A stretch of DNA of 29,404 bases from Candidatus Brocadiaceae bacterium (GTDB taxonomy: Bacteria > Planctomycetota > Brocadiia > Brocadiales > Brocadiaceae). Below the pieces are notes generated by a model. The model ran no database searches, was not told the origin of the DNA, and worked only from the letters and a program-made list of their open reading frames with translations. Where the stretch lies: the NCBI GenBank assembly GCA_015661205.1, contig JACVXV010000012.1:1-29404 (forward strand), in the 5' to 3' direction. Position 1 is the stretch's first letter; each line of letters starts with the position of its first letter. The position numbers and the translations under genes are program-made. This document shows, one piece after another, positions 4,430-29,404 of the stretch.

Positions 4430-5557
4430 TTATTTCGATTCTTTGTTGCCGGACGCTGCAAGTAGTTGGTTATTTACCAGAGATTTCTTTTCATTCCAGG
4501 TCTTCCACCACTGAATGTCACTTATGTACCAATTGGCCTGGTCTATCAATTCGTTGTCGTGTGATAAACCGGTAAAACGTTTAAACTCACCAAGCGCGGC
4601 CTCAAAGTCCTTCAAATTCCGGTAACAATTCGCTATCTGGAATTGCGCCCATTGGTATTGTTCGGCGAGGCAGTTGTCGGGCGTGATCATCTTGTACGTC
4701 TTCAAAGCGTTCTCGTACTCACACAATTTGTAATAACACTCGGCAGCGTTAAAAGAGTTTACCGTTTTCATTTCCTTTTCCAACCGGGAATCCAGGGACT
4801 CTTCTGACGGCGCTTTTTGCTGTCCGACTGCCCGATTGCCGGCGTTTGTGCTTATGCCTTTTGCCGGTTTTCCTTCTGTCCTGGATAAGAGGGCATTTTT
4901 AGCGGACGACGTGTCATTTGCCGGGGTAGGCTTATTATTGAGAACCGTTGTCTGTGCGGATAAACCCTTCTCTTCGTAACCTTCTTCCAGTTTAAACTCA
5001 TCCGCTAATTGACCATATTTCTTTTCCAATGCTTGCAGTTTTTCTTTTTCTGCCTTGAGAATCGATAGTATCGCCTCTTCGCTAAGTTCGTCTTGTGTTT
5101 GTTTATCCGGCAATGCCGATGGTTGCGACAGTAACTGTGGTTGCGGTTGCAGCTTCGGCTCTAGCAGTGGCTGAGGTTGCGACCGTGGTTGTGGCTGTGG
5201 TTGCAGCTTCACCTGTGGCTTCGGCTGAGGTTGTGATAGCAACCGTGGCTGCTGCTGTATTTGCGGCTTTGGCTGCGGTTGCGATGGCGGAGCCGCAACA
5301 ACCTCCGGCTCCTGCACCTCCATCTCAAATAACTCCGGCGCTTGCTCCTTCGGCTCAGACGCCACCGGCTTTTCTTCTATTTTTACTTGTATGGGCCTGA
5401 GCAAAGGCCTTTCAATATCATTACTGAGATTTGTTTGCAGCTTGTCCGGCGCTGCGGATATCTTATTGTTAGAAATATTCTCGCCGCCTCCCAAAAGACA
5501 AGGTGTATACATTAATACGAAACCAAGGGCAATATAGGTAGTTTTTAGTTTTTTCAT
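4430..5557 (-). CDS. Secreted or lipoprotein-like PQ-repeat protein with C-terminal TPR-like repeats
   Basis: The N-terminus is hydrophobic and ends in a Cys (MKKLKTTYIALGFVLMYTPCLLGG). The central region is P/Q-rich and repetitive. The C-terminus has TPR-like helices (AECYYKLCEYENALKTYK, IANCYRNLKDFEAALGEF). Its stop is 6 nt from the kinase start, so it is probably the first gene of the operon. Confidence 0.6.
   Translation of the reverse strand: MKKLKTTYIALGFVLMYTPCLLGGGENISNNKISAAPDKLQTNLSNDIERPLLRPIQVKIEEKPVASEPKEQAPELFEMEVQEPEVVAAPPSQPQPKPQIQQQPRLLSQPQPKPQVKLQPQPQPRSQPQPLLEPKLQPQPQLLSQPSALPDKQTQDELSEEAILSILKAEKEKLQALEKKYGQLADEFKLEEGYEEKGLSAQTTVLNNKPTPANDTSSAKNALLSRTEGKPAKGISTNAGNRAVGQQKAPSEESLDSRLEKEMKTVNSFNAAECYYKLCEYENALKTYKMITPDNCLAEQYQWAQFQIANCYRNLKDFEAALGEFKRFTGLSHDNELIDQANWYISDIQWWKTWNEKKSLVNNQLLAASGNKESK
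5120..5284 (-). repeat. Imperfect tandem coding repeat (units beginning SQPQP, about 16-19 aa each, about 3 copies)
   Basis: The protein reads SQPQPKPQIQQQPRLL / SQPQPKPQVKLQPQPQPR / SQPQPLLEPKLQPQPQLL / SQP. The DNA shows recurring ggctgaggttgcgac...gtggttgcagcttc blocks. Confidence 0.6.
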
Positions 5558-5972: not shown

Positions 5973-6214
5973 AAATTCTACAAAATCGATAAACCCTTGC
6001 TACTGCAACCGGGGGGGGCAAAAGGCTCAAGCGCTCTGCCTGCAACCCGAAACACCTCTTCCAACAGCCATTTTTTATTGCCAGCCCTGATGCGTAGCCG
6101 GTCAATCGCCCGTCCGCACCGATAACCCTGTGGCAAGGAATTATGGGAGGGGATTGTTGTGATTGGCGGAACCTACGGCCCTGGACGCCCTGGGACTCCC
6201 GATCCGATCTGCTT
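5973..6214 (-). pseudogene. Relic of the 3' end of an ogt/MGMT gene (frameshifted fragment)
   Basis: Roughly 80-90% identical by eye to 10069-10308. It still encodes [24 protein letters not shown] but has indels in the C-run and in the T-homopolymer (6 T versus 7 T) that break the frame. No N-terminal half is present. Confidence 0.7.
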
Positions 6215-9634: not shown

Positions 9635-10098
9635 TTCGTTAATCTTTTTTTATACGATTACGGCTAAAGATACGTCGAATTGAATACCAAAGTGCCTTTA
9701 CCTGGTTAGAAAAAAATATCCAAACCGCTATTGCAAGGGCAACCAACGGTGCCAATAACTGGAAAAGGTAACCTCCAGCATTTGGGTCAATGTAGGCAAA
9801 GTGAACAGCGTCAGCAAAATCATGGTGTTGTTTTCATGCAAATTAGGTGTTAGTAAGAGTTTGCCGCCGAGAATGTGGAGGACGAACACAAGTATGAATC
9901 ATATTATAAAGCTGAGGGGTTTATCAAGAAAATTATAGACAAACAAGCCAGGTTTTCGGTGCTTAACCCGGTGATCACTGGGGATTCGTCCGGTATTTTT
10001 CGAAAAACAGAAGCCTTTGGCTCTATGTTGCCGGTATCCATGTAATCGAGTACCGCAACGTGGGCTTTAAAATTCTACAAACCGATAAACCCTTGCTA

Positions 10099-10734
10099 TT
10101 ACAGCCGGGGGTCAAAAAGCCCAAGCGCCTTGCCTGCCACTCGAAACTCCTCTTCCAGCAGCCATTTTTTTACCACCAACCCTGATGCGTAGCCGGTTAA
10201 TCGTCCGTCCGCACCGATAACCCTGTGGCAAGGGATGATGGGGGGGAGGGGGTTGTTGTGATTGGCGGAACCTACGGCCCTGGACGCACCGGGACTCCCG
10301 ATCTGCTCAGCAACCCACTGATAAGATCGGCATTCTCCGTAAGGGATATCCTGCAGTTTCTTCCACACCTTCGTCTGAAACGGGGTTCCATTGCTTGTAT
10401 CCAGGGGGAAGTCGAATGTCACTTGCTTACCGGAGAAGTATGCCCTTAGAGCGGCTATTTCATACTGTAGGGATACATCGTTTCTTTCTATGGGCGTTGC
10501 TGCTTTTTTGAAAAAGGCGTGCAGAAAATCGTTTTCCGTATCGTGGGGAAAGGAAATCCGGCACACACCATGCGCATTTTTTGCCGCGAAGAGCAGCCCT
10601 ATTGGGGTGGAAAGACTACTGAAGTAAATCGCACCGGGATTATCTTCTTGCACTTTTGTTTGCGGCGCCCTTATTTCCCGCGCCCTCGTCTTTGCCCTTT
10701 GCGCCTTTACCGGCGCCTGAACCTTTACGTCCAA
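10099..10734 (-). CDS. ogt: Methylated-DNA--protein-cysteine methyltransferase (MGMT/Ogt)
   Basis: Active site is [17 protein letters not shown], preceded by the helix-turn-helix region [25 protein letters not shown]. The true start may be the in-frame GTG at 10653, which would reduce the overlap with the upstream gene from 95 nt to 14 nt. Confidence 0.85.
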   Translation of the reverse strand: MDVKVQAPVKAQRAKTRAREIRAPQTKVQEDNPGAIYFSSLSTPIGLLFAAKNAHGVCRISFPHDTENDFLHAFFKKAATPIERNDVSLQYEIAALRAYFSGKQVTFDFPLDTSNGTPFQTKVWKKLQDIPYGECRSYQWVAEQIGSPGASRAVGSANHNNPLPPIIPCHRVIGADGRLTGYASGLVVKKWLLEEEFRVAGKALGLFDPRL

Positions 10735-13942: not shown

Positions 13943-13994
13943 ATTAGCTTCCGTAGTTGAATGAAACAGGCAACAAACACAAGGAGCAGTGAGT

Positions 13995-14690
13995 ATGCCG
14001 GCTATAAAAGAACGAGTCGAGACCCTTGAGGAAGTGCTTAAGGAATGTGCCAAAAATATCAGCCTTTTAAGCATTTCTCAGACACAGACGGACAGAGAAC
14101 TCCGTGACTTTAAGGGAGAGATGCAGGGCTTTAAAGACGAGATGAAAGACTTTAAAAGCGAGATGCTTGATTTTAAAAGCGAAATGAAGGAATTTAAAGA
14201 CAAGATGTTGAAATTTAGTGAAGAATCAAAGGAGGATAGAATCCGTTGGTACAAACAATGGGGTGATATTGCCAATAAATTCGGTACGATTGTAGAGGAT
14301 ATGGTAGCTCCCAATATTCCGGGAATTGCCCGCACTTATTTCGGGTGTGAGGATTTGGATTTTTTCGGATTGAGGATAACGAAAAAGAATTTAAGGGATA
14401 AATCAAGAAGCCGGGAGTTTGACATAATAGCGGTGGCCGGCGGTGTGTTTATCATTAACGAAACCAAATCTACGCCGAGGGCCGAGTACATCCAGGATTT
14501 TGTTGAGACGCTTAAAGAGGTGCCTGATTATTTCCCGGAATCTCTGGAGAAAAGAATAATTCCTGTTTTTTCTTCTCTTTATCTTCCGCAAAACGTGATA
14601 ACATACCTTACAAGAATGAAGATTTACGCAATGGCAATAAAAGACGACACCATGGATTTGCTAAATTATAGGTCAATTTGCGCGGGTTAG
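13995..14690 (+). CDS. Coiled-coil plus PD-(D/E)xK-like protein (DUF3782-like by recollection)
   Basis: AAGGAG lies 8 nt upstream of the ATG at 13995. The N-terminus has heptad repeats DFKxEMx. The C-terminal core, EFDIIAVAGGVFIINETKS, fits a D...E-x-K nuclease motif. Confidence 0.55.
   Translation: MPAIKERVETLEEVLKECAKNISLLSISQTQTDRELRDFKGEMQGFKDEMKDFKSEMLDFKSEMKEFKDKMLKFSEESKEDRIRWYKQWGDIANKFGTIVEDMVAPNIPGIARTYFGCEDLDFFGLRITKKNLRDKSRSREFDIIAVAGGVFIINETKSTPRAEYIQDFVETLKEVPDYFPESLEKRIIPVFSSLYLPQNVITYLTRMKIYAMAIKDDTMDLLNYRSICAG
14106..14231 (+). repeat. Tandem 21-nt (7-aa) coding repeat, 5 good copies plus 1 degenerate
   Basis: The units read DFKGEMQ / GFKDEMK / DFKSEML / DFKSEMK / EFKDKML / KFSEESK. 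The DNA units resemble gactttaaaagcgagatgctt. Confidence 0.8.
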
Positions 14691-16028: not shown

Positions 16029-16910
16029 ATGACAAAAAACACACAACCACTTGCAGAGGTCTTTGGGCATTTCGTTGAGGATATATCTCCTAAAGCAAAT
16101 CGATACCGATCTGGTCGATTATGCCCATTCAATAACAAGGTTCCTAACTGTACCAAAGACAAGGCAAAAAATCCACTCGGCGTATGTAGCGTGTTTCACG
16201 ATGGAGTTCCGACAATAACATGTCCTATCAGGTTTAGGGAGGATTGGCTTATTACCGATGATGCAGCCTCTTTTTTCTTTGGAGATGGCGTCGCCTGGAG
16301 TTCACTTACAGAAGTTCGTCTGAACGACGCGACCGGGAAATCGGCCGGCAACATTGACGTTGTACTTGTCGCTTACGATGACAATGGAAAGGTTTTTGAT
16401 TTTGGTGCCCTGGAAATACAAGCGGTTTACATCTCCGGGAACGTCCGCGACCCCTTTGAATATTATATGACGAACCCAAAAGCTCACGCTCAAATGGACT
16501 GGTCAGCACAGCCAAATTACCCGCGACCAGATTATCTATCTTCTTCACGAAAACGTTTAGCACCTCAACTTCTCTATAAGGGTGGAATCCTTCATTCTTG
16601 GCGCAAGAAGACAGCCGTTGCATTAAACAGGAGTTTCTTTGAGACACTTCCGCCTTTGAAAACAATCAGCAAATCGAAGGCCGATATTTCTTGGCTTATA
16701 TACGATCTTCAGTTGGTCAAAGAGGAGGGACAATCAAGGTTCACACTAACAAAGACTGACGAAGTTTTTACGGAATTTGAGCCGGCCCTTCTAGCTATAA
16801 CGACTTCCTCACCGGGAAATATAGACGATTTTATAAACTTGCTTCAAGAGAAGCTTGATGAGCAACTTGAAACGCCGCCAAACAACAAAACAATTGAAAA
16901 GCCATTCTGA
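16029..16910 (+). CDS. NotI-family type II restriction endonuclease-like protein
   Basis: The N-terminus has a Cys-rich motif (CPFNNKVPNCTKDKAKNPLGVCSV...TCPIRFRED) of the kind found in the NotI family. A core D...E-x-Q/K-like motif reads GNIDVVLV...FGALEIQAVY. It is adjacent to a methyltransferase. Confidence 0.6.
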   Translation: MTKNTQPLAEVFGHFVEDISPKANRYRSGRLCPFNNKVPNCTKDKAKNPLGVCSVFHDGVPTITCPIRFREDWLITDDAASFFFGDGVAWSSLTEVRLNDATGKSAGNIDVVLVAYDDNGKVFDFGALEIQAVYISGNVRDPFEYYMTNPKAHAQMDWSAQPNYPRPDYLSSSRKRLAPQLLYKGGILHSWRKKTAVALNRSFFETLPPLKTISKSKADISWLIYDLQLVKEEGQSRFTLTKTDEVFTEFEPALLAITTSSPGNIDDFINLLQEKLDEQLETPPNNKTIEKPF

Positions 16911-16911
16911 C

Positions 16912-17859
16912 ATGAAAATATTCAGACAACAATCATTTTTCCCGGAATTGTGCGAGGCTGAAACACGTAAGCCGGTTAATGTCGCTTCTGTGCCGCAAAG
17001 AAGCCCATTTCGGTATCCGGGAGGGAAAACATGGTTTGTTCCAACGTTTCGTGACTGGATTAGAAATCAACATCCTAAACCGGAAATCCTGATCGAGCCG
17101 TTTGCAGGGGGAGGCATTATAAGTATCACCGCCTTGTTTGAGGAATTCGTCTCACGTGTCGTTATGGTTGAGATTGACGAGGATATCGCGGCTGTGTGGC
17201 AATCGGTGGTTGATGGACATGCGGGATGGCTTGCGAAAAGAATCCTTGATTTTGATCTGACCAAGGAATCAGTTATACAGGAAATATCGAAAACAGACGT
17301 TAGCGTCAGAGAGAAGGCGTTTCAAACCATTTTAAAAAACCGCACGTTTCACGGCGGTATATTGGCTGATGGCTCAGGCTTCTTAAAACACGGGGAAAAC
17401 GGCAAAGGAATCCGTTCCCGTTGGTATCCAGCCACCATTGCTAAGCGGTTCAACAATTTGGAACTCGTTGCTGATAGGATTGTTTTCCGTCAGGAAGACG
17501 GGTTTGAAGTCATGCAGGAGTATTCTCAACGCAATGACGTAGTATTCTTTATTGACCCGCCTTATACGGCCGGCGGAAAGAAGGCAGGCAAACGTCTTTA
17601 CCGTCACTTTTGCATAGACCATGAACGTTTATTCTCCTTATGTCAATCGATAAAAGGCGATTTCTTAATGACCTACGACAATGCGGATGAGGTTAAGACA
17701 ATGGCAAGGGCGCATGGCTTTCAGATGCGGCTTATTCCTATGAAGAACACCCACCATGCGGCAATGGAGGAACTGGTTATCGGTAAAAACCTGTCATGGA
17801 TGGATCGCTATGCAGCAGTGCATGAACCGTTTGCTGAATATAAAGTTAATGGCAAGTAA
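16912..17859 (+). CDS. Dam-like (D12 class) N6-adenine DNA methyltransferase
   Basis: Has the SAM motif FRYPGGKTWFVP and the catalytic motif FFIDPPYTAGG. The ATG at 16912 lies 1 nt after the nuclease stop. The track ORF start at 16855 overlaps the upstream gene and is less likely. Confidence 0.8.
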   Translation: MKIFRQQSFFPELCEAETRKPVNVASVPQRSPFRYPGGKTWFVPTFRDWIRNQHPKPEILIEPFAGGGIISITALFEEFVSRVVMVEIDEDIAAVWQSVVDGHAGWLAKRILDFDLTKESVIQEISKTDVSVREKAFQTILKNRTFHGGILADGSGFLKHGENGKGIRSRWYPATIAKRFNNLELVADRIVFRQEDGFEVMQEYSQRNDVVFFIDPPYTAGGKKAGKRLYRHFCIDHERLFSLCQSIKGDFLMTYDNADEVKTMARAHGFQMRLIPMKNTHHAAMEELVIGKNLSWMDRYAAVHEPFAEYKVNGK

Positions 17860-17911
17860 ATCAACTAAGATATAAAACATTCTATAACAGTACGTCATTT
17901 TCGAGAGGGGT

Positions 17912-19828
17912 GTGCCTGTGAGCAACGAATTGACTTTTGAAACATTTGAAAAAGAATGGTTGTTAGATATTGTGTCTGAAAACCCGAGCACGATTGAACT
18001 AGGCAGACGGTTTTCAAAAAAACTGGTCAGCCAGTGGCTCGATTTTGCAGAGGATATCGAGTCTCCAGACGACGTTGTTTACTGTGACGGTACGGGTGAT
18101 GGGGGTATTGACATCGCGTGCTTACAGAGGGGTGATGATACCGAAGACAATTCTAACGGCGGTGACACATGGTATTTAGTTCAGAGTAAGTATGGGGCTG
18201 CTTTTGTCGGGACAAAAACTTTAATAGAAGAAGCGCAAAAGCTTATTGATACCATTGATGGGAAGAGGAATAATCTTTCATCGCTTGCAGCAAGCCTTGT
18301 TGAGAGACTTCAAACTTTTCGGAAGCAAGCATCTGAAAAAGACAAAATGGTTATCGTTTATGCTATACAAAGACCACTCTCTGAGGATGAAAGACGAGCA
18401 GTAGAAGACATTAAAGCAATGGGCAAGAATCGGCTTGGGTCTCTGTTTGATACGGATGTTGTTAGTCTCGAAACAATCTATCACAGGACGCTTGAGGAAA
18501 TCAGTCATATAAAAAAGACACAGGTCTTGATAACTGCTCACTTGGTTCCCTCTGGTGAAGAAATGCTTGTGGGTTCTGTTGGATTGCTTCAACTCTTTGA
18601 ATTTTTAAAGAATTACAAGGCAACAACTGGTGATATTGATATGCTTTATGAAAAGAATGTACGAAAGTTTCTTGGCAGTAGAAGAAAAGTAAACAAGGGA
18701 ATTGAAAATACTCTTTTGACAAAACCTGAAAGATTTGGACTCTACAATAACGGAATTACAATCGTGGTTGAGGAGTTTCAAAAGCTACCTAACAATATTG
18801 AATACGAACTGACTGAACCTTTTGTAGTCAATGGTTGTCAAACAACAAGGACGATTTGGGAAGTCTTGTATAGGAAACTTGAAGCAGGAGGCACTGGCAA
18901 AAATCCAGAACTGGAAACATGGAAAAGAAATCTTGGAAAAGGCATCGTGGTTATTAAAATAGTTAAGGTTGGAATAAGGGGCGATGAACTTCTTACTGAA
19001 ACCACAAGATATACGAACAGTCAGAATGCAGTAAGTGAAAAAGACTTCATAGCGCTTGAGAGTGATTTTCAAAAGTGGTCAAAAAACATGGCTTCCAAGT
19101 ACAATGTTTTTCTGGAAATCCAGCGAGGAGGTTGGGATTCCCAAAAAGCATACCAAAAACAAAACCCTGATACGAGGCAGTTTACTGAATGCATAAATGC
19201 CTTTGACTTGCTGAAGGTCTACGGTGCTGCGTGGTTAGGGGAGGCAGGTATTTCATTTGGGAAAAATCCACCCTTTGCCCCCGGAGGAAGCTTGTTTCAT
19301 AAAATCGTAAAGCAGGAAGACTTTGGTCTTGATGACTTATACTGTGCATTCCAATTATACAAGGCTGGAGGGCATTTCAAGTTTGGTCGTGGTGCAGAGA
19401 AACAACAACGAGGACAAACAAGGCATTTGTTTTACATGCTCACAGTTGAACTGCTTAAAGACTGCTTTATTGCGGCTGACAGGGTGGCAACAAACAAAAA
19501 TATTACCATCGCATTCTTGAATCTCTTCAAGCCCAAAAATGAGATGGCATTAAATGCATTGCTTGAATACTCAATCTCTATAGCTGACGATTATCTGACT
19601 CATGGGCACGAGTATTGTGTGTTTAAGGAACCAAAGTTTTTGGAAAAAGGCAGTGATTTAAATAGTTTTCTGAAATGGGAACAGCTTGGCAAAGGAAATG
19701 ACTCCACCCCCTTATTGAACAACCTTCTTGCACAGTATAAGATCGCCTTAAAGGGTGGCATAGGCGGTCAACCAAAATACAGAGATATGATAAGAGCCAT
19801 CATTCTCACTCCTGATACAGCGGAATAG
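17912..19828 (+). CDS. AIPR-family abortive-infection protein with an N-terminal Mrr/PD-(D/E)xK-like motif
   Basis: AIPR hallmarks are LYNNGITIVVEEF and VVNGCQTTRTIWEVL. The N-terminus, DGTGDGGIDIACL...WYLVQSKYG, resembles the Mrr-type D...Q-x-K core. It has a GTG start with GAGAGGGG upstream. Confidence 0.8.
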   Translation: MPVSNELTFETFEKEWLLDIVSENPSTIELGRRFSKKLVSQWLDFAEDIESPDDVVYCDGTGDGGIDIACLQRGDDTEDNSNGGDTWYLVQSKYGAAFVGTKTLIEEAQKLIDTIDGKRNNLSSLAASLVERLQTFRKQASEKDKMVIVYAIQRPLSEDERRAVEDIKAMGKNRLGSLFDTDVVSLETIYHRTLEEISHIKKTQVLITAHLVPSGEEMLVGSVGLLQLFEFLKNYKATTGDIDMLYEKNVRKFLGSRRKVNKGIENTLLTKPERFGLYNNGITIVVEEFQKLPNNIEYELTEPFVVNGCQTTRTIWEVLYRKLEAGGTGKNPELETWKRNLGKGIVVIKIVKVGIRGDELLTETTRYTNSQNAVSEKDFIALESDFQKWSKNMASKYNVFLEIQRGGWDSQKAYQKQNPDTRQFTECINAFDLLKVYGAAWLGEAGISFGKNPPFAPGGSLFHKIVKQEDFGLDDLYCAFQLYKAGGHFKFGRGAEKQQRGQTRHLFYMLTVELLKDCFIAADRVATNKNITIAFLNLFKPKNEMALNALLEYSISIADDYLTHGHEYCVFKEPKFLEKGSDLNSFLKWEQLGKGNDSTPLLNNLLAQYKIALKGGIGGQPKYRDMIRAIILTPDTAE

Positions 19829-21700: not shown

Positions 21701-24700
21701 ATGAATTCAGACCTGACCTTTATCACCAACGAAGAAAATAGAAGCCTGTTAGAAAGATTTAGGATACTTATTAAAGATACCCGACTCTTTGATGTGCTTG
21801 TTGGTTATTTCTACACAAGCGGGTTTCACGCACTTTATAAATCACTCGAAAACACTGAAAAAATCAGAATTTTGGTTGGTATAAATACTAATAAACAAAC
21901 TGTTGAACTCATTCAAAAAGCAAAAGTTGAACAACCAACCCTTCAGTATTCGCATGCAGAAGTAAAGGAACAGCTAGAGGTTTCTGTTACAAAAGAAATT
22001 GAAGACTCAGAGGATAGCCCTGCCGTTGAAGAAGGCATCCTAAAGTTTATTGAATGGCTAAAAAGCGGAAAATTAGAAATCAGGGCATACCCAACTGAAA
22101 ACATTCACGCAAAGGTTTACATTATGACCTTTGTTGAAGGTGACAGGGATATAGGGAGAGTCATTACAGGGTCAAGCAACTTCACTCAATCAGGCCTCAT
22201 TGACAACTTTGAGTTTAATGTCGAATTAAAAAACAGGGCAGATTACGAATTTGCATTGCAAAAATTCAACGAACTATGGAAAGACGCTGTTGATGTAAAG
22301 GAACGATATATTGATACAATTCAAATAAAAACCTGGCTGAACAATACCATTACCCCTTACGAATTGTACCTCAAATTTTTATATGAGTATTTCAAAGAGG
22401 AACTCAATCAGGCAGATGAAGTATTTTTGAACTATCTTCCTCAAGAATTCAAAAAACTGGCATATCAGGAGCAGGCCGTTTTAAATGCTAAAAAGATACT
22501 TCTGGAATACGGCGGTGTTTTTATCTCTGATGTTGTAGGGTTAGGCAAGACATACATATCTGCAATGCTGGCAGGGCAGCTTGACGGCAGAACACTTGTT
22601 ATTGCCCCACCTGTATTGCTTGAAAGATCAAACCCCGGCTCCTGGACTAATGTGTTTTCCGATTTCAAGGTACCAGCCGACTTTGAATCGCTCGGCAAAT
22701 TGGATGACCTTATTAACAGAGGGACAGAGAAATACACCAATATTATTGTTGATGAGGCACACCGTTTTAGAACGGAAACAACGATTACCTATGAGAAATT
22801 GGCGGAAATCTGCCGTGGCAAAAGGGTTGTTCTTGTAACGGCGACTCCCTATAACAATGCGCCAAAAGACATCCTAAGCCTTTTAAAGCTATTCCAGAAA
22901 GCCAGAAAAAGCACTATACCAAATCTGCCTGATATGGAAGGCTTTTTCAATAACCTGGATAAAAAATTGAAAAAACTGGACAGGCAGAAAGATTATGTCA
23001 AATACATAAGTACTGTGAAAGAAAATGCGCTGGAACTTCGTGAAAAAGTCCTCAAATATTTAATGGTTCGCCGTACCCGAACGGAAATCGAAAAATATTT
23101 TGGTGAAGACATAAAGAGCCAAAACCTCAAATTCCCTGATGTTGAAAAACCAGTCCCCCTTTTTTATGAACTCAATGATACGGAGGATGAAGTCTTCAAC
23201 AAAACCATTGAATTGATAGCGCAAAAATTCAAATACGCCCGTTATATGCCCATGATTTATTATGAAGGTAAAGTTGATCAGCTTGAAAAGCAGTCCCAGC
23301 GAAACATGGGCAAATTTATGAAAATCCTGCTGGTAAAGCGTCTTGAAAGCAGTTTTTTTGCATTTAAAAATTCGGTGGATAGATTCCTGCGTTCTTACGA
23401 GATGTTTATAAAAGAGCTTGATAACGGAAATGTTTATGTGAGTAAAAAGCATTCTCATAAAATATTTGAACTGTTGGAGAGTGATGACGATGAAGCCGTC
23501 CAGCGATTGATAGATGAGGGCAAGGCTGAAAGATATGTAAGCACTGAATTTAGAGAAGCCTTAAGAAATGATTTACAGCACGACCATGACATTCTCCTAG
23601 AGATTAAAAAACTGTGGCATCATATTGACCGCGACCCGAAGCTTTTAAAATTTTTGGCGGAATTGTCTAAAAACCCGGTTTTAAAAGCAAATCATCTGAT
23701 TATCTTTACAGAATCAAAGGAAACCGCAAACTATCTGTTCAAAAACATCAGTCAACACTACCCGGGTAAAGTACTCTGTTTTACAGGGGATTCAGGCGAG
23801 GCAACGCGCGATATGGTAATTGAGAATTTTGACGCCAGATCACGTCATCCTAAAGAAGATTATCGTATACTGGTCACTACTGAAGTATTGGCTGAAGGTG
23901 TTAACCTGCACCGCTCTAATACGGTGATAAATTACGATATCCCCTGGAATCCTACGCGCATGATGCAGCGGGTAGGGCGTGTCAACCGTGTTGATACATC
24001 ATTTGAAACGATACATACCTTTAATTTCTTCCCGACCAAACAATCAAATGACCAGATAAAACTGAAAGAAGCAGCAGAGGCTAAAATCAATGCCTTTTTA
24101 ACCCTGCTTGGAGGTGACGCAGAACTTTTGACTGAGGGTGAACCCATTGGCTCGCATGAACTATTTAATCGGCTGATTTCCAAACAGACGCTGGAAGGCG
24201 AGGAGAGTGCAGTGGAAAGCGAATTGAAATATCTCCATATTATTAAAGAGATTCGCGATAAGTCCCCCGATCTTTTTGAAACGATAAAACGTCTCCCCAA
24301 AAAGGCGCGCACTGCAAAAACCCTGACAGGGTTCTCAACCCTGTCAGGGTTGATTACCTACTTCAGACGGGGAAAATTGCAGAAATTTTTTGAAACAAAA
24401 CATGAAGGTGGGGCTGAAGAAATGGATTTTCTGACTGCGGCTAAACTGCTGGAGAGTACTCCTGATACGATGAAGGAAAAACTCCCCGAACAGTTTTACG
24501 ACCTCCTGGATAAAAATAAAGAGGCATTTGTTTTAGCGACAACAGAAGAAATGCCTCAGCAAAGTTACAGAGGTGGACGTGACAGCTCTGCAAATATCCT
24601 TAAAATATTGAAGGCCACCATAAGAAACACCCAAAAACTGACAGAAGACCAGGAACTATACCTAAAAAAAGTTCTCATCCAGCTTGAAGAAGGCGGACTG

Positions 24701-25483
24701 CCCAAACAGACGGCAATGCAAACACTGAAAGCCCTGAATGCGCTTCAGAATGAAATCGTTAATCCATTCAAGGTACTGGCGGTTCTTCAGACCCATATTC
24801 CGAAAAAACTTCTGGAAGAACACTATGCAGAACAGAACCCTGTGGTATTTGGCAAGCGGGAAGTTATACTCTCATTATATTTAGCAGGAAAACCCTGTCA
24901 GGGTTATTGGAGAAAGGCAATGAGCACAACAGCCACGCCGTTGTTACCAGGGAACTGGTATCATATTTATAATCGGGGTATCAATGGCGAAACTCTTTAC
25001 CACACTGATGCAAACTACCAATACTTTCTGCACTTGCTCGCCAAATATGTTTTCCACACAGCAAAAGTCTATGCGTATTGTCTTATGAAGAACCATTTTC
25101 ATTTGTTGGTTTCTATTCGTGATGATACAAAAAGAAAGCCACATCTCTATTTTTCAGACATGTTTAACAGCTATACCCAAGGGCTTAACAAACAACTGGG
25201 ACGGACGGGAAGTCTCTTCGAACGCCCCTTTCGCCGTAAGGTGATTTCATCTGAAAATCAGCGAGTTCAGGTAACTTTCTATATACACAATAATCCCCGG
25301 CATCATGGCATAATGAATGACTTTGCTGAGTACCCGTACTCCTCATACAGGGCTGTGCTGTCGAACGCACCAACGAAAATAGAGCGCGAAGCAGTGCTTT
25401 CGTGGTTTGGTGGGCGTGATGGTTTCTTGGCATATCATAGCATTGGTTGCGATGACATTTCAGATAATCTAATATTGGAGTAA
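21701..25483 (+). CDS. PLD(HKD)-nuclease / SNF2-family helicase, read through in frame into a RAYT-like HUH transposase domain
   Basis: The N-terminal HKD motif is NIHAKVYIM...GRVITGSSNFTQSG. Helicase motifs are I (VGLGKTY), II (IIVDEAHRFR), III (LVTATPYNN) and the C-terminal lobe (LVTTEVLAEGVNLH, PWNPTRMMQRVGRVNRV). The last 187 codons are a Y1/HUH transposase (see the mobile element feature). Confidence 0.85.
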   Translation: MNSDLTFITNEENRSLLERFRILIKDTRLFDVLVGYFYTSGFHALYKSLENTEKIRILVGINTNKQTVELIQKAKVEQPTLQYSHAEVKEQLEVSVTKEIEDSEDSPAVEEGILKFIEWLKSGKLEIRAYPTENIHAKVYIMTFVEGDRDIGRVITGSSNFTQSGLIDNFEFNVELKNRADYEFALQKFNELWKDAVDVKERYIDTIQIKTWLNNTITPYELYLKFLYEYFKEELNQADEVFLNYLPQEFKKLAYQEQAVLNAKKILLEYGGVFISDVVGLGKTYISAMLAGQLDGRTLVIAPPVLLERSNPGSWTNVFSDFKVPADFESLGKLDDLINRGTEKYTNIIVDEAHRFRTETTITYEKLAEICRGKRVVLVTATPYNNAPKDILSLLKLFQKARKSTIPNLPDMEGFFNNLDKKLKKLDRQKDYVKYISTVKENALELREKVLKYLMVRRTRTEIEKYFGEDIKSQNLKFPDVEKPVPLFYELNDTEDEVFNKTIELIAQKFKYARYMPMIYYEGKVDQLEKQSQRNMGKFMKILLVKRLESSFFAFKNSVDRFLRSYEMFIKELDNGNVYVSKKHSHKIFELLESDDDEAVQRLIDEGKAERYVSTEFREALRNDLQHDHDILLEIKKLWHHIDRDPKLLKFLAELSKNPVLKANHLIIFTESKETANYLFKNISQHYPGKVLCFTGDSGEATRDMVIENFDARSRHPKEDYRILVTTEVLAEGVNLHRSNTVINYDIPWNPTRMMQRVGRVNRVDTSFETIHTFNFFPTKQSNDQIKLKEAAEAKINAFLTLLGGDAELLTEGEPIGSHELFNRLISKQTLEGEESAVESELKYLHIIKEIRDKSPDLFETIKRLPKKARTAKTLTGFSTLSGLITYFRRGKLQKFFETKHEGGAEEMDFLTAAKLLESTPDTMKEKLPEQFYDLLDKNKEAFVLATTEEMPQQSYRGGRDSSANILKILKATIRNTQKLTEDQELYLKKVLIQLEEGGLPKQTAMQTLKALNALQNEIVNPFKVLAVLQTHIPKKLLEEHYAEQNPVVFGKREVILSLYLAGKPCQGYWRKAMSTTATPLLPGNWYHIYNRGINGETLYHTDANYQYFLHLLAKYVFHTAKVYAYCLMKNHFHLLVSIRDDTKRKPHLYFSDMFNSYTQGLNKQLGRTGSLFERPFRRKVISSENQRVQVTFYIHNNPRHHGIMNDFAEYPYSSYRAVLSNAPTKIEREAVLSWFGGRDGFLAYHSIGCDDISDNLILE
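24319..24351. repeat. REP-like hairpin dimer copy 1 (inside the helicase ORF, in frame)
   Basis: Sequence is AACCCTGACAGGGTT-ctc-AACCCTGTCAGGGTT, translated as TLTGFSTLSGL. Confidence 0.85.
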
Positions 25484-25530
25484 CTTTACCGTCCGTTAAC
25501 CCTGACAGGGTTTGAAACCCTGTCAGGGTT
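24891..25530 (+). mobile_element. REPtron-like unit: REP half-site, RAYT-type HUH/Y1 transposase ORF (24920-25483), REP dimer
   Basis: AACCCTGTCAGGGTT sits at 24891-24905, GGAGA at 24913-24917 and an ATG at 24920. The protein has NWYHIYNRG, the HUH motif NHFHLLV and the Tyr motif FYIHNNPRHHG, and is 187 aa long. A REP dimer follows at 25498-25530, 15 nt after the stop. Confidence 0.65.
25498..25530. repeat. REP-like hairpin dimer copy 3 (intergenic)
   Basis: Sequence is AACCCTGACAGGGTT-tga-AACCCTGTCAGGGTT, with perfect 15-nt arms. Confidence 0.85.
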
Positions 25531-25550
25531 CAACAGGAATAAAAAATACT

Positions 25551-26930
25551 ATGGATAAACATCAAGCTCAAAACATTATCAGAGAAACCTTTGAAAACTC
25601 TTTTGATAAAGAGAGGTTTGTCGGTTTTATTAAAAACCTTTTAAAACGTATCGAAGAAGATCGTATCCCGCAGCGGCAGGGACAATTCATCCCTGAAGCT
25701 TACAGACAATATATCAGCACACTTGAAAGAATAGGTAAATTCAATGACGGTGAAAACAGAATTGATATCCTTATCATCAAACTCCAAAAAGAGACCTCCC
25801 TTGAACGCGCCCGCACCATGCAGAGAAACTTTGTTGCTGGATATTTACAGGGCAAATACGGTAGTTCAAATGAAAAAGAAGCGGCGCTTGTTGCCTTTGT
25901 ATCGCCCGATGAGAAAGACTGGCGGTTTTCACTGGTAAAGATGGACTACAAGTTTGAACAGACTCAAACTGGCATAATGAAGGTAAAAGACGAATTCACG
26001 CCTGCGCGGAGATGGTCGTTCCTTGTGGGTAAAAATGAAACCAGTCACACTGCCCAGAACAGACTGGTTAACATGCTGGCAAATGACGAACACAGTCCAA
26101 CCCTTGCCGAACTGGAACAGGCATTTGACATTGAAACCGTTACCAAAGAATTTTTCATTAAATACCGTGAGCTTTTTATCCGCACAAAAGAGGAACTGGA
26201 CAAAGTGGTAGAAAACGATGCGAAAATCAAAGCAGATTTTGAGGCAAAAAGTGTAAACGTCGTTGACTTTGCCAAAAAACTTCTTGGACAGATTGTATTC
26301 TTATATTTCCTGCAAAAAAAAGGGTGGTTTGGCGTTGGGCGTGATGCCGAATGGGGCACTGGCTCTAAACACTTTTTGCGTGAACTCTTTGGGAAAAGGC
26401 ACGGCGACTATAAAAATTTCTTCAATGACATTCTGGAACCACTCTTTTATGAAGCTTTGCGTAATGACCGCAGTCATGATGACCACTATTACAGCCAATT
26501 TAACTGCAAAATCCCGTTCTTAAACGGCGGTCTTTTTGATCCCATTGGCAATAACGGTGGATATGATTGGATTAAAACTGATATTCATCTGCCGGACAGC
26601 CTGTTCTCTAATAAAAATAAAACCAAAGAAGGCGATGAGGGCGATGGCATTCTGGATATTTTTGACCGCTACAACTTTACCGTCAGAGAAGACGAGCCGC
26701 TGGAAAAGGAAGTTGCCATTGACCCCGAACTTCTGGGCAAGGCGTATGAAAAGTTCAATGCCATCCGCCCTGACAACTTTGAGGAATATAAAAAGGCATT
26801 AAAGAGCGGGAAAAAAGGTGAAGAAAGCAAATTCAACAAGCAATACGGCGTTTACTACGCCCCCCGTGAGATTGTCCACTATATGTGCCAGCAGATACCT
26901 GCACACAGAATTGATCACTCCCCACCCTGA
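25551..26930 (+). CDS. Eco57I/PglX-like N6-adenine methyltransferase, N-terminal fragment (ends in a stop inside a REP copy)
   Basis: The ATG at 25551 (MDKHQAQNIIRETF) lies just after the REP dimer. The fragment contains FLYFLQKKGW, NGGLFD and the conserved YYAPREIVHYMCQQ block. Its TGA at 26928-26930 is the ctGAca of the REP arm. Confidence 0.75.
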   Translation: MDKHQAQNIIRETFENSFDKERFVGFIKNLLKRIEEDRIPQRQGQFIPEAYRQYISTLERIGKFNDGENRIDILIIKLQKETSLERARTMQRNFVAGYLQGKYGSSNEKEAALVAFVSPDEKDWRFSLVKMDYKFEQTQTGIMKVKDEFTPARRWSFLVGKNETSHTAQNRLVNMLANDEHSPTLAELEQAFDIETVTKEFFIKYRELFIRTKEELDKVVENDAKIKADFEAKSVNVVDFAKKLLGQIVFLYFLQKKGWFGVGRDAEWGTGSKHFLRELFGKRHGDYKNFFNDILEPLFYEALRNDRSHDDHYYSQFNCKIPFLNGGLFDPIGNNGGYDWIKTDIHLPDSLFSNKNKTKEGDEGDGILDIFDRYNFTVREDEPLEKEVAIDPELLGKAYEKFNAIRPDNFEEYKKALKSGKKGEESKFNKQYGVYYAPREIVHYMCQQIPAHRIDHSPP

Positions 26931-28977
26931 CAGGGTTCCAAACCCTGTCAGGGTAGAAGACATCAAGGCCCTGATACACCTCGGTGAACATATTAGCGAA
27001 AATGAAGAAATAGCGCTGATCAAAGGACGAAAAATTCTAGAGGGCAAAAAGAAATCTTCGGGTTACAAATCACAATTGCCCGAAATCATACGCAAGAATG
27101 CCGTATTAATTGATCAGAAACTGGCGGACATCACCGTCTGTGATCCGGCAGTTGGTTCCGGCGCATTTCCTGTGGGCATGATGAGCGAAATTGTAAAGGC
27201 AAGAAGTGTGCTAACGACCTTTATTGTAACTCAAGCGTCCCTGTCTGCATGTGGAGACGCACAGGCAGGCAGCTTGAGTCCAGAAACACTGACAGGGTTC
27301 CAAACCCTGTCAGTGCTAAGGTCAGACCCACCGAGAACAACCTATGATTTCAAACGGCAATGCATTGAAAAATCTCTTTACGGTGTGGATATTGACCCCG
27401 GCGCTGTGGAAATTGCAAAACTTCGGCTGTGGCTATCGCTTGTTGTAGATGAAGATGACATAAAGAACATCAAGCCCCTGCCCAATCTGGATTATAAAAT
27501 TGTCTGCGGGAATTCGTTGCTGGGAGTGGAGAAAAACCTGTTTAACGATCATCTTTTTTTAAAACTGGAAAAAATAAAACCGCTCTACTTCAACGAAACC
27601 AACCCTACAAAAAAGCAGGACTTTAAAAAGCAGATTGATGAACTGATAAGCCAGATTACCAATGGCCATAAAGAATTTGATTTTGAGATTTATTTTTCCG
27701 AAGTGTTTCATCATAAAAAAGGATTTGGCATTGTGATTGCCAACCCACCGTATATCAGGGCCGAAGAATTGGGTGATCTGAAAATACACCTTAAGGCTAC
27801 CTATTCCGTATTCGCCCCTGCCGGTGATATTTTCTCTTACTTTTACGAGAAGTCTTTTAATATTCTGAAAACTCAAGGTGTATTTTGCTTTATCAATAAT
27901 GCGTTTGATAAAACAACTGCTGGAAAAACTTTGCGGGATTACGTTGCGAAAAAATGTTCACTCAAGAAATATGTGGATTTTAAATCTGTCGTTGTTTTTG
28001 AGGGTACGATAACTTACCCTATAATTCTACTTGCAACGAAATCAATGCCTCAAGAGACATTTGAATATCTCAAAGTTACCGAAGACACACTCATGAAGTT
28101 TAATTTTGGTGGGGATATTGTTTATACACCTTTGCCAAGGTCGGCACTGAAGCAGTCTTCATGGAGTTTTGATCATCAGGGGCAAGCTGAGCTATCAGAA
28201 AAGATAGCTAAACATAAGAAGTTGAGAGAAGTATTTGGAAAGTGTTATCGCGGTATTATTACCGGCATAAATGATGCCTTTATAGTAGAAAAAGATTTAG
28301 GCAACATCAAACACTTAAAACCTGTTTTTGAGGGTAAGGACATCAAGAAATGGTTAACACCAGCCATTGGCAAGAAAATGATTGTCTTTGAGAATAAGTC
28401 AACGCGCACGGTTTATAACGGGCAAAACGAAGCGAAAGCGTTTAAAGCTATTCAGGTGGCTTTTCCAGAAATCATGAATCATCTTGAACCCTTTGCCGAA
28501 GCAGCTAAAAAGCGATATGACAAGGGTGAATACTGGTGGGAACTTAGAAACTGTGCTTATTACGACCTTTTTGGAAGACCAAAGATAATTTTTCCCAATC
28601 TTCAAAGCACCAATAAGTTTGCTTATGATACGAGCGGAACGTACCTCAATGCCCCGGCGGTTTTCTTACCGACAGATGCAAAATGGTTATTGGGTCTTCT
28701 AAACTCAAAAGTGGTCTGGTATTTCTTGAAGACAATTTGTGTTGTTAGAAACGGTGGATTTATTGAGGTAAAACCTCAATATTTCGAGCAAATTTCAATA
28801 CCATCCCTCAAAGACACGGATAAGAAACAACTAGATTCTCTCGTTGACCAAATCCTCACTGCAAAACAAAACGTTCCCGATGCCAACACGTCGGCGCTGG
28901 AAAAACAGATTGACCAGATGGTTTACAAACTTTACGACCTCACGCCTGATGAGATTGAAATTGTGGAGGGCAAATAA
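26818..28977 (+). CDS. Eco57I/PglX-like N6-adenine methyltransferase, C-terminal fragment (catalytic motifs plus target-recognition domain) in the +1 frame
   Basis: Motif I is VCDPAVGSGAFPVGM, followed by YGVDIDPGAVEIAKLRLWLSLV and motif IV VIANPPYIRAEEL. A TaqI/Eco57I-type C-terminal domain (YWWELRNCAYYDLFGRPKIIFPN, GGFIEVKPQYFEQISIP, LYDLTPDEIEIVEG) follows. The first ~25 codons of the track ORF overlap the upstream fragment and are probably not translated as such. Confidence 0.8.
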   Translation: MKKANSTSNTAFTTPPVRLSTICASRYLHTELITPHPDRVPNPVRVEDIKALIHLGEHISENEEIALIKGRKILEGKKKSSGYKSQLPEIIRKNAVLIDQKLADITVCDPAVGSGAFPVGMMSEIVKARSVLTTFIVTQASLSACGDAQAGSLSPETLTGFQTLSVLRSDPPRTTYDFKRQCIEKSLYGVDIDPGAVEIAKLRLWLSLVVDEDDIKNIKPLPNLDYKIVCGNSLLGVEKNLFNDHLFLKLEKIKPLYFNETNPTKKQDFKKQIDELISQITNGHKEFDFEIYFSEVFHHKKGFGIVIANPPYIRAEELGDLKIHLKATYSVFAPAGDIFSYFYEKSFNILKTQGVFCFINNAFDKTTAGKTLRDYVAKKCSLKKYVDFKSVVVFEGTITYPIILLATKSMPQETFEYLKVTEDTLMKFNFGGDIVYTPLPRSALKQSSWSFDHQGQAELSEKIAKHKKLREVFGKCYRGIITGINDAFIVEKDLGNIKHLKPVFEGKDIKKWLTPAIGKKMIVFENKSTRTVYNGQNEAKAFKAIQVAFPEIMNHLEPFAEAAKKRYDKGEYWWELRNCAYYDLFGRPKIIFPNLQSTNKFAYDTSGTYLNAPAVFLPTDAKWLLGLLNSKVVWYFLKTICVVRNGGFIEVKPQYFEQISIPSLKDTDKKQLDSLVDQILTAKQNVPDANTSALEKQIDQMVYKLYDLTPDEIEIVEGK
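26924..26954. repeat. REP-like hairpin dimer copy 4 (at the break between the two MTase fragments)
   Basis: Sequence is ACCCTGACAGGGTT-cca-AACCCTGTCAGGGT. It reads HPDRVPNPVRV in the downstream frame and gives a TGA stop in the upstream frame. Confidence 0.85.
27230..27278. repeat. Second, unrelated imperfect palindrome immediately 5' of REP copy 5
   Basis: CTCAAGC-gtccctgtctgc...gcacaggcaggca-GCTTGAG has perfect outer 7-nt arms and imperfect inner arms. It lies inside the MTase ORF. Confidence 0.4.
27287..27315. repeat. REP-like hairpin dimer copy 5 (degenerate, inside the MTase ORF, in frame)
   Basis: Sequence is CACTGACAGGGTT-cca-AACCCTGTCAGTG, translated as TLTGFQTLSVL. Compensatory changes (CC to CA, GG to TG) keep the arms complementary. 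Confidence 0.8.
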
Positions 28978-29044
28978 ACAGGTATGATTTATCATGTTGA
29001 CATAACAAGTGATGGTCATTCCACTTTTGTTAGAGGATTACTTC

Positions 29045-29404
29045 ATGACCAATAATACAGATAGTCCCATGCTTGAATCTGCATATAAATCTGTTCAGGA
29101 CTGCTTCGCTTCGGCCCCCGTCATTGTATTGGGGAGTGGCCACTCATGTGCTTTTGATATCCCTGGCATGCCACAACTCACGGACTATATACGTTCTGAA
29201 GTTCCCAGAGAAGTAGCACCTAATGACAATCAAACGTGGAAGACATTTGAGGAAAAGCTCCAGAGTCTATCTCTTGAGGCTGCGCTCCGCGAAATCCAGT
29301 TAAGCCAGCGGCTAACTAATCTCATAACCCAAGTTCAACAAATTCGTCACAAAAAAGGTAAAAAACGAGCAAAAAACGGGTATGCAAAAGTCATAACCCC
29401 TTGA
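29045..29404 (+). CDS. Hypothetical protein with a weakly SIR2-like N-terminal pattern
   Basis: AGAGGA lies 7 nt upstream of the ATG at 29045. VIVLGSGHSCAFDIPGMPQLTDYI loosely fits the G-x-G-x-S...G-x-P...L pattern of SIR2_2-type defence proteins. The ORF stops exactly at the window end after a Lys-rich tail, so it may be truncated or frameshifted. Confidence 0.3.
   Translation: MTNNTDSPMLESAYKSVQDCFASAPVIVLGSGHSCAFDIPGMPQLTDYIRSEVPREVAPNDNQTWKTFEEKLQSLSLEAALREIQLSQRLTNLITQVQQIRHKKGKKRAKNGYAKVITP

Follow-up and report, generated by a model that had tools for sequence, protein, structure and literature searches.

Why should one 15-nt palindrome recur within some 3 kb of defense genes in a 29,404-nt stretch of DNA from a Candidatus Brocadiaceae bacterium (contig JACVXV010000012.1, positions 1 to 29,404; the window below means this whole stretch)? 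Comparison of the window with other genomes indicates that the palindrome very probably belongs to a family of repetitive extragenic palindromes (REPs) and of REP doublet-forming hairpins (REPINs). Together with its cognate REP-associated tyrosine transposase (RAYT), this family would constitute a REPtron that resides in the helicase–methyltransferase (MTase) slot of a mobile cassette encoding an HKD-SNF2 helicase and a Type IIG-like MTase. The repeat forms hairpins, is dispersed and mostly intergenic, and is coupled to a conserved HUH/Y1 clade, with both the complementarity of its hairpin and the sequence of its arms being actively maintained.

The repeat unit and the transposase gene it flanks

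A search of the window for AACCCTGNCAGGGTT with up to two mismatches returned nine matches, all within positions 24319–27317, where 0.12 matches were expected from shuffled sequences and none of 100 shuffles attained nine. No match at this threshold occurs in the rest of the 29 kb, which bears out the confinement to about 3 kb described in a first-pass annotation made from the sequence alone; the only three-mismatch matches, at 7528 and 17787, look like chance. The nine matches make up four 33-nt doublets and one singlet (Table 1), for which the first-pass coordinates held in copies 1–3 and were 1–2 nt too narrow in copies 4 and 5. Each doublet consists of an arm, a 3-nt loop and a second arm, and since all window doublets have a central A in the left arm and a central T in the right, their arms are both reverse complements and near-direct repeats of each other. 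As the first reading had proposed, the four doublets fold as single-stranded DNA into hairpins (13–15 bp, −14.8 to −17.8 kcal/mol, z −6 to −7.5 against shuffles); for the singlet the value is just −4.5 kcal/mol. The full unit is a 33-nt hairpin with a 15-bp stem, self-palindromic arms and a free 3-nt loop. It is 11 codons long and lacks stops in two of three frames on either strand, the third frame yielding TGA.

Covariation separates this long hairpin from the mini-palindrome within each arm. Across all loci compared, 179 doublets with up to six mismatches comprise 38 variants with 116 changed positions, of which 45 are compensated by Watson–Crick pairing only in the 33-nt hairpin and one only in the 15-nt arm; a further 33, from a fully palindromic AAACCTGNCAGGTTT sub-family, are compensated in both hairpins and 37 in neither. 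The ratio of 45 to 1 indicates that the long hairpin, about as large as one classical REP, is the maintained or templated unit, and it argues against the 15-nt mini-palindrome as the unit of selection. The central bases of the two arms are complementary (A..T or T..A) in 177 of the 179 doublets, and the arms are never a direct duplicate. Inverted REP halves that keep their complementarity are the architecture of a REPIN. Copy 5 of the window falls among the compensated variants by virtue of one pair of changes (C4>A in the left arm, G12>T in the right), so that the compensation on both arms noted at first reading stands for this pair, while one further change in the copy is uncompensated.

The only bias in the flanks of 140 perfect doublets is a preference of about 50% for T at position −1 and A at position +1; the flanks carry no tetranucleotide tag of the GTAG or CGTC type, and neither a target-site duplication nor a conserved target was seen in them. 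In 12 of the 140, for example at L060 4948, L074 472 and L118 1720 (L numbers denote the loci compared), an extra 4–9 nt of complementary, non-conserved flank extends beyond the 15-bp stem, against about 0.6 expected, which could reflect insertion into existing hairpins or templated extension.

The gene enclosed by copies 2 and 3 encodes a RAYT-type transposase whose HUH motif (NHFHLL) and catalytic tyrosine (in YIHNNP) are invariant in the homologue alignment. It matches the NCBIfam model REP_Tyr_transpos with E=1e-12, below the curated cut-off, and 20 of 32 homologues match Pfam Y1_Tnp, likewise below curated cut-offs. A profile of these 32 homologues found a sole relative in the PDB, Escherichia coli TnpA_REP (4ER8; E=1.2e-5), with the HUH motif and the tyrosine aligned. 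More than 3000 homologues exist, many of them called RayT by JGI. In the window the singlet precedes the gene and a doublet follows it, each at a distance of 14 nt, and the REP-flanked layout is found in three other RAYT-bearing cassette loci. The four cassette copies of the gene have diverged with 0.35–0.49 synonymous substitutions per site (dS) and a ratio of nonsynonymous to synonymous substitutions (dN/dS) of 0.10–0.17, which indicates that the gene is maintained. Each cassette locus holds one RAYT, and the host cassette lies in varying genomic contexts.

Table 1. Positions of the cassette genes and palindromic elements in the window.
Feature	Positions	Strand	Description
HKD(PLD)-nuclease and SNF2 helicase gene	21701-24919	+	Pfam PLDc_2, SNF2-rel_dom, Helicase_C; PADLOC 'HKD+Snf2' C3a139, E=8e-45
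REP doublet 1	24319-24351		Perfect arms, loop ctc; read TLTGFSTLSGL in hypervariable helicase linker
REP singlet 2	24891-24905		T-centered; 5' flank of RAYT gene; read KPCQG
RAYT-type HUH/Y1 tyrosine transposase gene	24920-25483	+	187 aa; between copies 2 and 3
REP doublet 3	25498-25530		Perfect, loop tga; intergenic; 3' flank of RAYT; its end 20 nt from MTase ATG (25551)
MTase N-terminal fragment	25551-26930	+	Type IIG-like restriction-modification (RM); PADLOC REase_MTase_IIG PDLC03596, model 1-444, E=1e-235
REP doublet 4	26923-26955		Loop cca; 1 mismatch at outer end of each arm; read HPDRVPNPVRV in downstream frame
MTase C-terminal part	26956-28977	+	Eco57I-type N6-adenine MTase domain (Pfam Eco57I, 8e-35) and TaqI_C specificity domain (2e-12); PADLOC PDLC03596 positions 564-1144
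Second, unrelated palindromic element	27229-27279		ACTCAAGC...GCTTGAGT; in frame as VTQASLSACGDAQAGSLS; adjoins REP doublet 5
REP doublet 5	27285-27317		Loop cca; 1+2 mismatches; read TLTGFQTLSVL; in permissive MTase loop between motif I and YGVDID segment

The repeat and its cassette in other genomes

A scan for the exact doublet AACCCTGACAGGGTTNNNAACCCTGTCAGGGTT in one genome per species, the counts of which are lower bounds, found at least 119 stretches in at least five phyla. Among the matches listed, to which the following counts also refer, about 25 stretches belong to Brocadia and Kuenenia, and others to Bacteroidales, Flavobacterium, Spirosomataceae, KSB1, Balneolaceae, Calditrichota and Moduliflexus/Vecturithrix. 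By a stop-to-stop heuristic, 114 of 127 doublets (~90%) do not lie deep in long open reading frames (ORFs). The 13 genic doublets occur in helicase orthologues, RAYT genes, surface-protein linkers, a membrane protein and an AroA-like enzyme, those of the surface proteins being in linkers ahead of the C-terminal sorting domain of large Bacteroidota proteins (type IX secretion system, T9SS), and all are read as TLTGFxTLSG(L/F) or NPDRVxNPVRV. Most copies are solo: in 107 of the 119 stretches no cassette protein has a homologue. In 11 stretches a RAYT homologue (33–57% identity to that of the window) adjoins the doublet, mostly with REPs 30–85 nt upstream of the start and 5–70 nt downstream of the stop, and several of these have an extra in-frame doublet within the RAYT gene. 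Further copies and an association with the HUH gene, both sought as a check on the first reading, were thus found. Doublets inside RAYT genes share one recurrent position past the HUH motif, with inserts such as NTPDRVSNPVRG (Bacteroidota loci L017, L020, L060, L079 and L090; proteins P0193 and P0199).

Copies are present on at least ten contigs of KSB1 RBG_16_48_16 and, besides the cassette, at no fewer than five sites in the complete genome of Brocadia pituitae. The local concentration in the window, which had seemed special at first reading, can be explained simply: a RAYT gene lies here, and REPs cluster at RAYT genes elsewhere, for example in L017. None of 2.9 million viral contigs searched contained the doublet, and phage origin or spread was rejected on this ground. 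A relation to a known RNA family was likewise dropped after an Rfam search gave no credible match. Of the papers listed by a full-text search with the core sequence, none dealt with bacterial repeats, and the literature searched contained no paper on anammox REPs.

Other anammox genomes also contain the helicase–RAYT–MTase cassette with its REPs: a Kuenenia-like assembly (L003/L004), Brocadia sapporoensis (L005), B. pituitae (L007), Brocadia WS118 (L016), Kuenenia hertensis (L099) and Brocadia carolinensis (L124) were compared, together with the anammox loci L002, L070 and L129. These cassettes carry REPs at the five sites of the window, with presence/absence and singlet/doublet variation, and the REPs are syntenic in L002, L003, L005, L007, L016, L070, L099 and L124. 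The neighbors of the cassette are ketoacyl synthase and SIR2 in the window; L002 and L129 have Mg-chelatase there instead, and L005 and L007 an ABC transporter. These differences indicate that the cassette moves as a unit. The helicase–MTase slot holds a RAYT in four genomes, a 65-aa antitoxin-like ORF in K. hertensis (2096-2290, minus strand), an AlbA_2/HATPase_c_4/Fic-like_C gene in L005 (13199-14596), a PIN toxin–antitoxin pair in L129 (10259-10905) and other repeat debris in L016 (5264-5999). Where the cassette has no REPs, the next gene after the helicase is the MTase (L128) or an AlbA_2/Fic-like gene (L127). The idea that REPs mark the cassette boundaries or act as a mobility module was rejected, since the window has none upstream of 21701 or downstream of 28977; a REP upstream of the helicase occurs only in L124. 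REP-bounded mosaicism between the MTases of the window and L007 was also rejected, as identity drops at the specificity domain and not at the REP sites.

The helicase copy provides the clearest record of constraint. Helicase homologues are about 1063 aa long, and close ones (77–90% identity) occur in many taxa. REP-less homologues have a 27-nt segment (9 aa, HKTEHANSL-like) between ...RTAK and ITYFRR, in place of which REP-bearing orthologues have the 33-nt doublet, or in L129 a singlet; in L016 another palindromic element occupies precisely this site. Because a doublet, a singlet or another palindrome can occupy it, the linker is permissive, hypervariable and repeatedly hit. A simple insertion was ruled out here, as the 33 nt stand in place of the 27-nt linker, which REP-less homologues conserve, and the first-pass description of the copies as insertions needs amending accordingly, the copies also being syntenic in other anammox cassettes. 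Across eight orthologues 0/30 arm positions vary, against 231/480 flanking and 3/3 loop positions. In a subset of five orthologues chosen by protein search, which removes ascertainment by the REP, the corresponding figures are 0/30 for the arms and 148/480 for the flanks (p=3.5e-5), and at third-codon positions 0/10 and 90/160 (56%; p=4e-4). Loop triplets track taxonomy, with ctc/ctt in the Kuenenia-like group and ggg, gag, gga and tgg in Brocadia. Invariant arms between varying flanks and loop indicate that the constraint acts on nucleotides. A single old insertion, after which the arms were held by constraint at the nucleotide level or by conversion, would give this pattern; peptide selection or repeated re-insertion would not.

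At its 3' end the helicase gene has been altered at the singlet. An ORF of 1260 aa (21701-25483) reads through the helicase and RAYT genes in frame with no stop between them. At the place of the singlet's TGT, the REP of orthologues contains the helicase stop TGA; in the Kuenenia-like assembly (L003) and B. pituitae (L007) the helicase ends ...AAA CCC TGA, the stop being supplied by an A-centered REP. The spacer from the singlet to the RAYT ATG is moreover 7 nt shorter in the window than in B. pituitae. The helicase ORF therefore runs into the RAYT gene because only the T-centered singlet (TGT) was kept and the spacer is 7 nt shorter. We infer that the singlet is a doublet collapsed by slippage between its halves. 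A GGAG 8–11 nt ahead of the RAYT ATG would still allow independent translation of the transposase.

The MTase gene is split in the window into ORFs 25512-26930 and 26818-28977. Set against the intact 1084-aa orthologue of B. pituitae, the gene shows a deletion of 11 nt at the 26895/26896 junction, 27 nt ahead of copy 4 (the missing sequence reads GCCTGATAAAT in B. pituitae). Copy 4 was considered as the cause of the frameshift and rejected, because it is neither longer nor shorter than the in-frame copy of B. pituitae and the upstream deletion is responsible; the upstream fragment stops at a TGA inside doublet 4. The first-pass statement that three copies lie in ORFs without breaking the frame is therefore correct in that the REP did not break the MTase, but the gene is frameshifted by the deletion. 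The count also needs revision, as copy 2 too lies in an ORF, the read-through tail of the helicase, and the MTase of copy 4 is split. The peptides given at first reading for copies 1, 4 and 5 are those of Table 1. Judged from its sequence, the window MTase is probably a pseudogene through the 11-nt deletion. In the intact MTase of L007 a perfect orthologous copy 4 lies in frame, and the only degenerate REPs among the cassettes compared are the two in the frameshifted MTase of the window; this is suggestive of a tie between REP decay and MTase pseudogenization, in a single case.

The MTase sites also differ among genomes. At the copy-4 site a variable loop of about 100 nt lies between two doublets in B. 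sapporoensis and K. hertensis and occurs without REPs in L002. In the window and B. pituitae this loop is missing and a single doublet is found, which is what a deletion between two repeats would leave. At the copy-5 site the loop is short and REP-free in L002, and B. pituitae has further repeat-derived peptides. The second palindromic family of Table 1 takes the same permissive sites as the REP. It encodes peptides of the form VTQ(A/V)xSL...KQDACDT and is found in the helicase linker of L016 (4645-4710) and protein P0013, as well as in MTase loops of the window, L007 and L005 (N-part). A whole, different Y1_Tnp/RAYT-like transposase lies in frame at the copy-5 loop in B. sapporoensis (L005 15418-18756) and L129 (10987-15144), with the motifs RRNLPHW...NHVHLL...YIAENP and flanked by other repeat-derived peptides; gene callers report the MTase with its in-frame transposase as a single protein of 1112–1385 aa.

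The surroundings of the cassette are a defense island in an anammox-type gene context. Defense genes in 16029-19828 and 29009-29404 include a NotI-like endonuclease with a D12-class MTase and AIPR/AbiU, and a SIR2-like gene lies at the end of the window. They are interleaved with ketoacyl-synthase and radical-SAM genes, which are typical of anammox lipid clusters. The window contains other repeats besides. Two direct copies of about 230 nt (5983-6212 and 10079-10311; 86–91% identical, 4.1 kb apart) bracket sulfotransferase and sulfatase genes, the second within an O6-methylguanine-DNA methyltransferase gene (10099-10734, minus strand) and the first in a region that is without a long ORF and resembles a gene fragment. 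Tandem units of 21 nt (at least four, 14094-14207) lie in frame in ORF 13989-14690, and three units of 54 nt (5110-5271) in frame in the minus-strand ORF 4430-5557.

Proposed mechanism and alternative explanations

A mechanism is proposed by analogy with E. coli TnpA_REP and the TnpA of IS200/IS605, both of which act on folded hairpins in single-stranded DNA. The RAYT would bind and cut the 33-nt hairpin on single-stranded DNA and join there, and its action in trans would spread or maintain the copies. Copies that land in tolerant protein loops would survive as 11-aa inserts, TLTGFxTLSGL or NPDRVxNPVRV, and third-frame copies would donate a TGA. With a length of 11 codons and two of three frames free of stops, the unit can reside in coding sequence without any special mechanism. 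The five copies of the window arrived with the cassette and were not acquired locally, given that the same REP sites recur in other anammox genomes. Later changes that may be associated with the REPs include the reduction of a doublet to a singlet, with loss of the helicase stop and fusion of the helicase ORF to the RAYT; deletion of the inter-doublet segment at the copy-4 site; and exchange of cargo in the REP-flanked slot. In the window MTase, itself probably a pseudogene, the two REPs show the first signs of decay.

Several observations weigh against a REPtron. The homology from which cleavage and mobilization by the RAYT are predicted is remote (phmmer to 4ER8, E=0.41), and the NCBIfam REP_Tyr_transpos and Pfam Y1_Tnp scores are under the curated cut-offs. 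The repeat is without the GTAG or CGTC tag used by E. coli-type RAYTs. Per-genome copy numbers are modest, although they are lower bounds from an exact-match scan (in B. pituitae, at least five dispersed sites besides the cassette). Within the window, which was the part of the source genome covered, the remaining 26 kb hold no copy. The varied contexts of the cassette, finally, fit horizontal movement better than they fit a vertically inherited, domesticated RAYT.

The alternative that survives best, which we nonetheless consider unlikely, is an autonomous IS200/IS605-like insertion sequence (IS), in which the Y1 gene and its two flanking hairpins move horizontally as one unit and the dispersed doublets are solo ends or miniature derivatives resembling palindrome-associated transposable elements (PATEs) or miniature inverted-repeat transposable elements (MITEs). 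An IS would account for an identical 33-mer beside transposases that are only 33–57% identical across phyla, for the RAYT lying in a cassette at differing chromosomal sites, for hairpins on both sides of the RAYT that resemble the left and right ends (LE and RE) of an IS, and for two RAYT matches within 3 kb in L079. It is hard to reconcile with the predominance of hairpins over genes, 107 of 119 stretches among the matches listed having no transposase within 8 kb, or with the lack of tnpB nearby in the window and flanks that vary between singlet and doublet without a fixed left/right asymmetry. Purifying selection on the RAYT with dS of 0.35–0.49 between cassettes also speaks against recent identical IS copies, as does the absence of the doublet from the 2.9 million viral contigs. 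The IS and the REPtron differ mostly in degree, that is, between a selfish and a domesticated element.

The hairpins might instead be functional cis-elements that serve the cassette, through switching on and off or module exchange driven by the RAYT, through mRNA structure or control of translation, or as a self-marking site. In-gene arms that stay perfect over a dS of about 0.4 while the loop drifts, REPs at domain boundaries and around a slot with differing cargo (RAYT, antitoxin-like, AlbA_2/Fic-like, PIN), and decayed copies only in the frameshifted MTase would all be in keeping with such a role. However, most copies of the repeat are solo, lie between genes and are found in unrelated contexts and phyla, close cassette homologues work with no REP at all, another palindromic family at the same permissive sites points to tolerance and not function, and the link between decay and pseudogenization is one case; we therefore regard a cis-element role as highly improbable. 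The broader proposition that REP hairpins and RAYT form a working module of the anammox helicase–Type IIG cassette, and are not mere passengers, also appears quite doubtful. If it were true, RAYT cutting at the hairpins could switch, rearrange or mobilize defense genes, and the identity of the 33-mer across phyla would reflect an unusually constrained, horizontally travelling REP–RAYT partnership, at odds with the model of vertically inherited REPINs. Selection of the 11-aa linker peptides with an incidental DNA palindrome, for which the recurrence of TLTG[FL]xTLSGL at the same helicase position in several anammox genomes might speak, is refuted, since the DNA is read in two frames and is also intergenic, arm third-codon positions are 0/10 variable against 56% of flanking ones, only the loop-encoded residues vary, homologues outside the clade have an unrelated linker, and the repeat occurs in unrelated proteins and intergenic DNA of other phyla.

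On this point the first-pass annotation was right to see a nucleotide element tied to the HUH gene: helicases from other taxa, examined as the homologue check, have an unrelated 9-aa linker and not the same peptide. For annotation, the peptides TLTGFxTLSGL and NPDRVxNPVRV are best read as repeat-derived, as are 'fusion' ORFs such as helicase–RAYT and MTase-with-Y1_Tnp. REP and REPIN biology has been studied mostly in Proteobacteria, and the REPtron described here adds an untagged, compact 33-nt REP family with its RAYT clade from Planctomycetota (anammox), Bacteroidota, KSB1 and other phyla. The family offers a clean natural example of in-gene REP arms that are conserved more strongly than the surrounding codons, and of REPs that remodel genes by giving or removing stop codons, fusing ORFs and deleting loop segments.

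Relation to known repeat systems

One close parallel in layout is the REP and bacterial interspersed mosaic element (BIME) system of E. coli, where a HUH/Y1 gene (TnpA_REP, 4ER8) is also flanked by short dispersed hairpin repeats with a stem-loop unit of about 33–35 nt, and 4ER8 is the only PDB relative of the RAYT family profile. Here, in contrast, no conserved GTAG stands at the hairpin foot, the stem is perfect and each arm is palindromic; the protein similarity is remote, and the RAYT lies inside a mobile defense cassette.

REPIN–RAYT systems have been described in Pseudomonas and Enterobacteria (Bertels & Rainey 2011, PMC3116915; Bertels et al. 2017, PMC5581495). Like those REPINs, the present unit has two inverted halves with a short spacer and a long hairpin kept by compensated changes, its solo copies far outnumber the transposase gene, and REPs cluster by RAYT. 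It differs in size (33 nt with a 3-nt spacer, against about 70–110 nt), in its identical sequence across phyla beside RAYTs of 33–57% identity and in the modest copy numbers seen, whereas the described REPIN families are lineage-specific and vertically inherited (PMC5581495).

Intragenic, frame-preserving REPs, regarded as unusual at first reading, have documented precedents, which are often dimers, often in helicase or repair genes and sometimes two per gene (PMC3733652). They include GTAG/CGTC REPs in Opitutus terrae, Thauera and others, and Rickettsia palindromic elements (RPEs; Di Nocera et al. 2013, PMC3733652). The present copies resemble both in being palindromic, often dimeric and in frame in intact genes, with several inserts possible in one gene and some overlapping ORF ends. 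Unlike the GTAG/CGTC REPs, they are untagged and of a different sequence family, and unlike RPEs, which are about 100–150 bp long with no known cognate transposase, they differ in size, sequence and host, so that the relation to RPEs is one of analogy and not of membership. Unlike either, the intragenic copies here lie beside a RAYT gene and are syntenic across genera.

With IS200/IS605 the locus shares a Y1 HUH transposase bracketed by subterminal hairpins and, presumably, hairpin chemistry on single-stranded DNA. Both flanks here are the same symmetric element, however, the hairpins are mostly solo and the transposase copies have diverged. Pfam and NCBIfam scans of the window found no tnpB, and the predominance of solo hairpins, the lack of tnpB and the diverged transposase copies set the system apart from an IS200/IS605-like element. 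Without a tag, the repeat is also not a member of the GTAG or CGTC REP superfamilies. The family itself is undescribed, but the kind of bacterial repeat to which it belongs is well known; it represents no new kind of system and leaves the understanding of what REPs are unchanged. What is new is modest: a 33-nt unit that is compact and doubly palindromic, a sequence shared unchanged across phyla although the RAYTs are only 33–57% identical, the residence of REP and RAYT in a mobile defense cassette, and a quantified conservation of the arms relative to the codons of their host genes.

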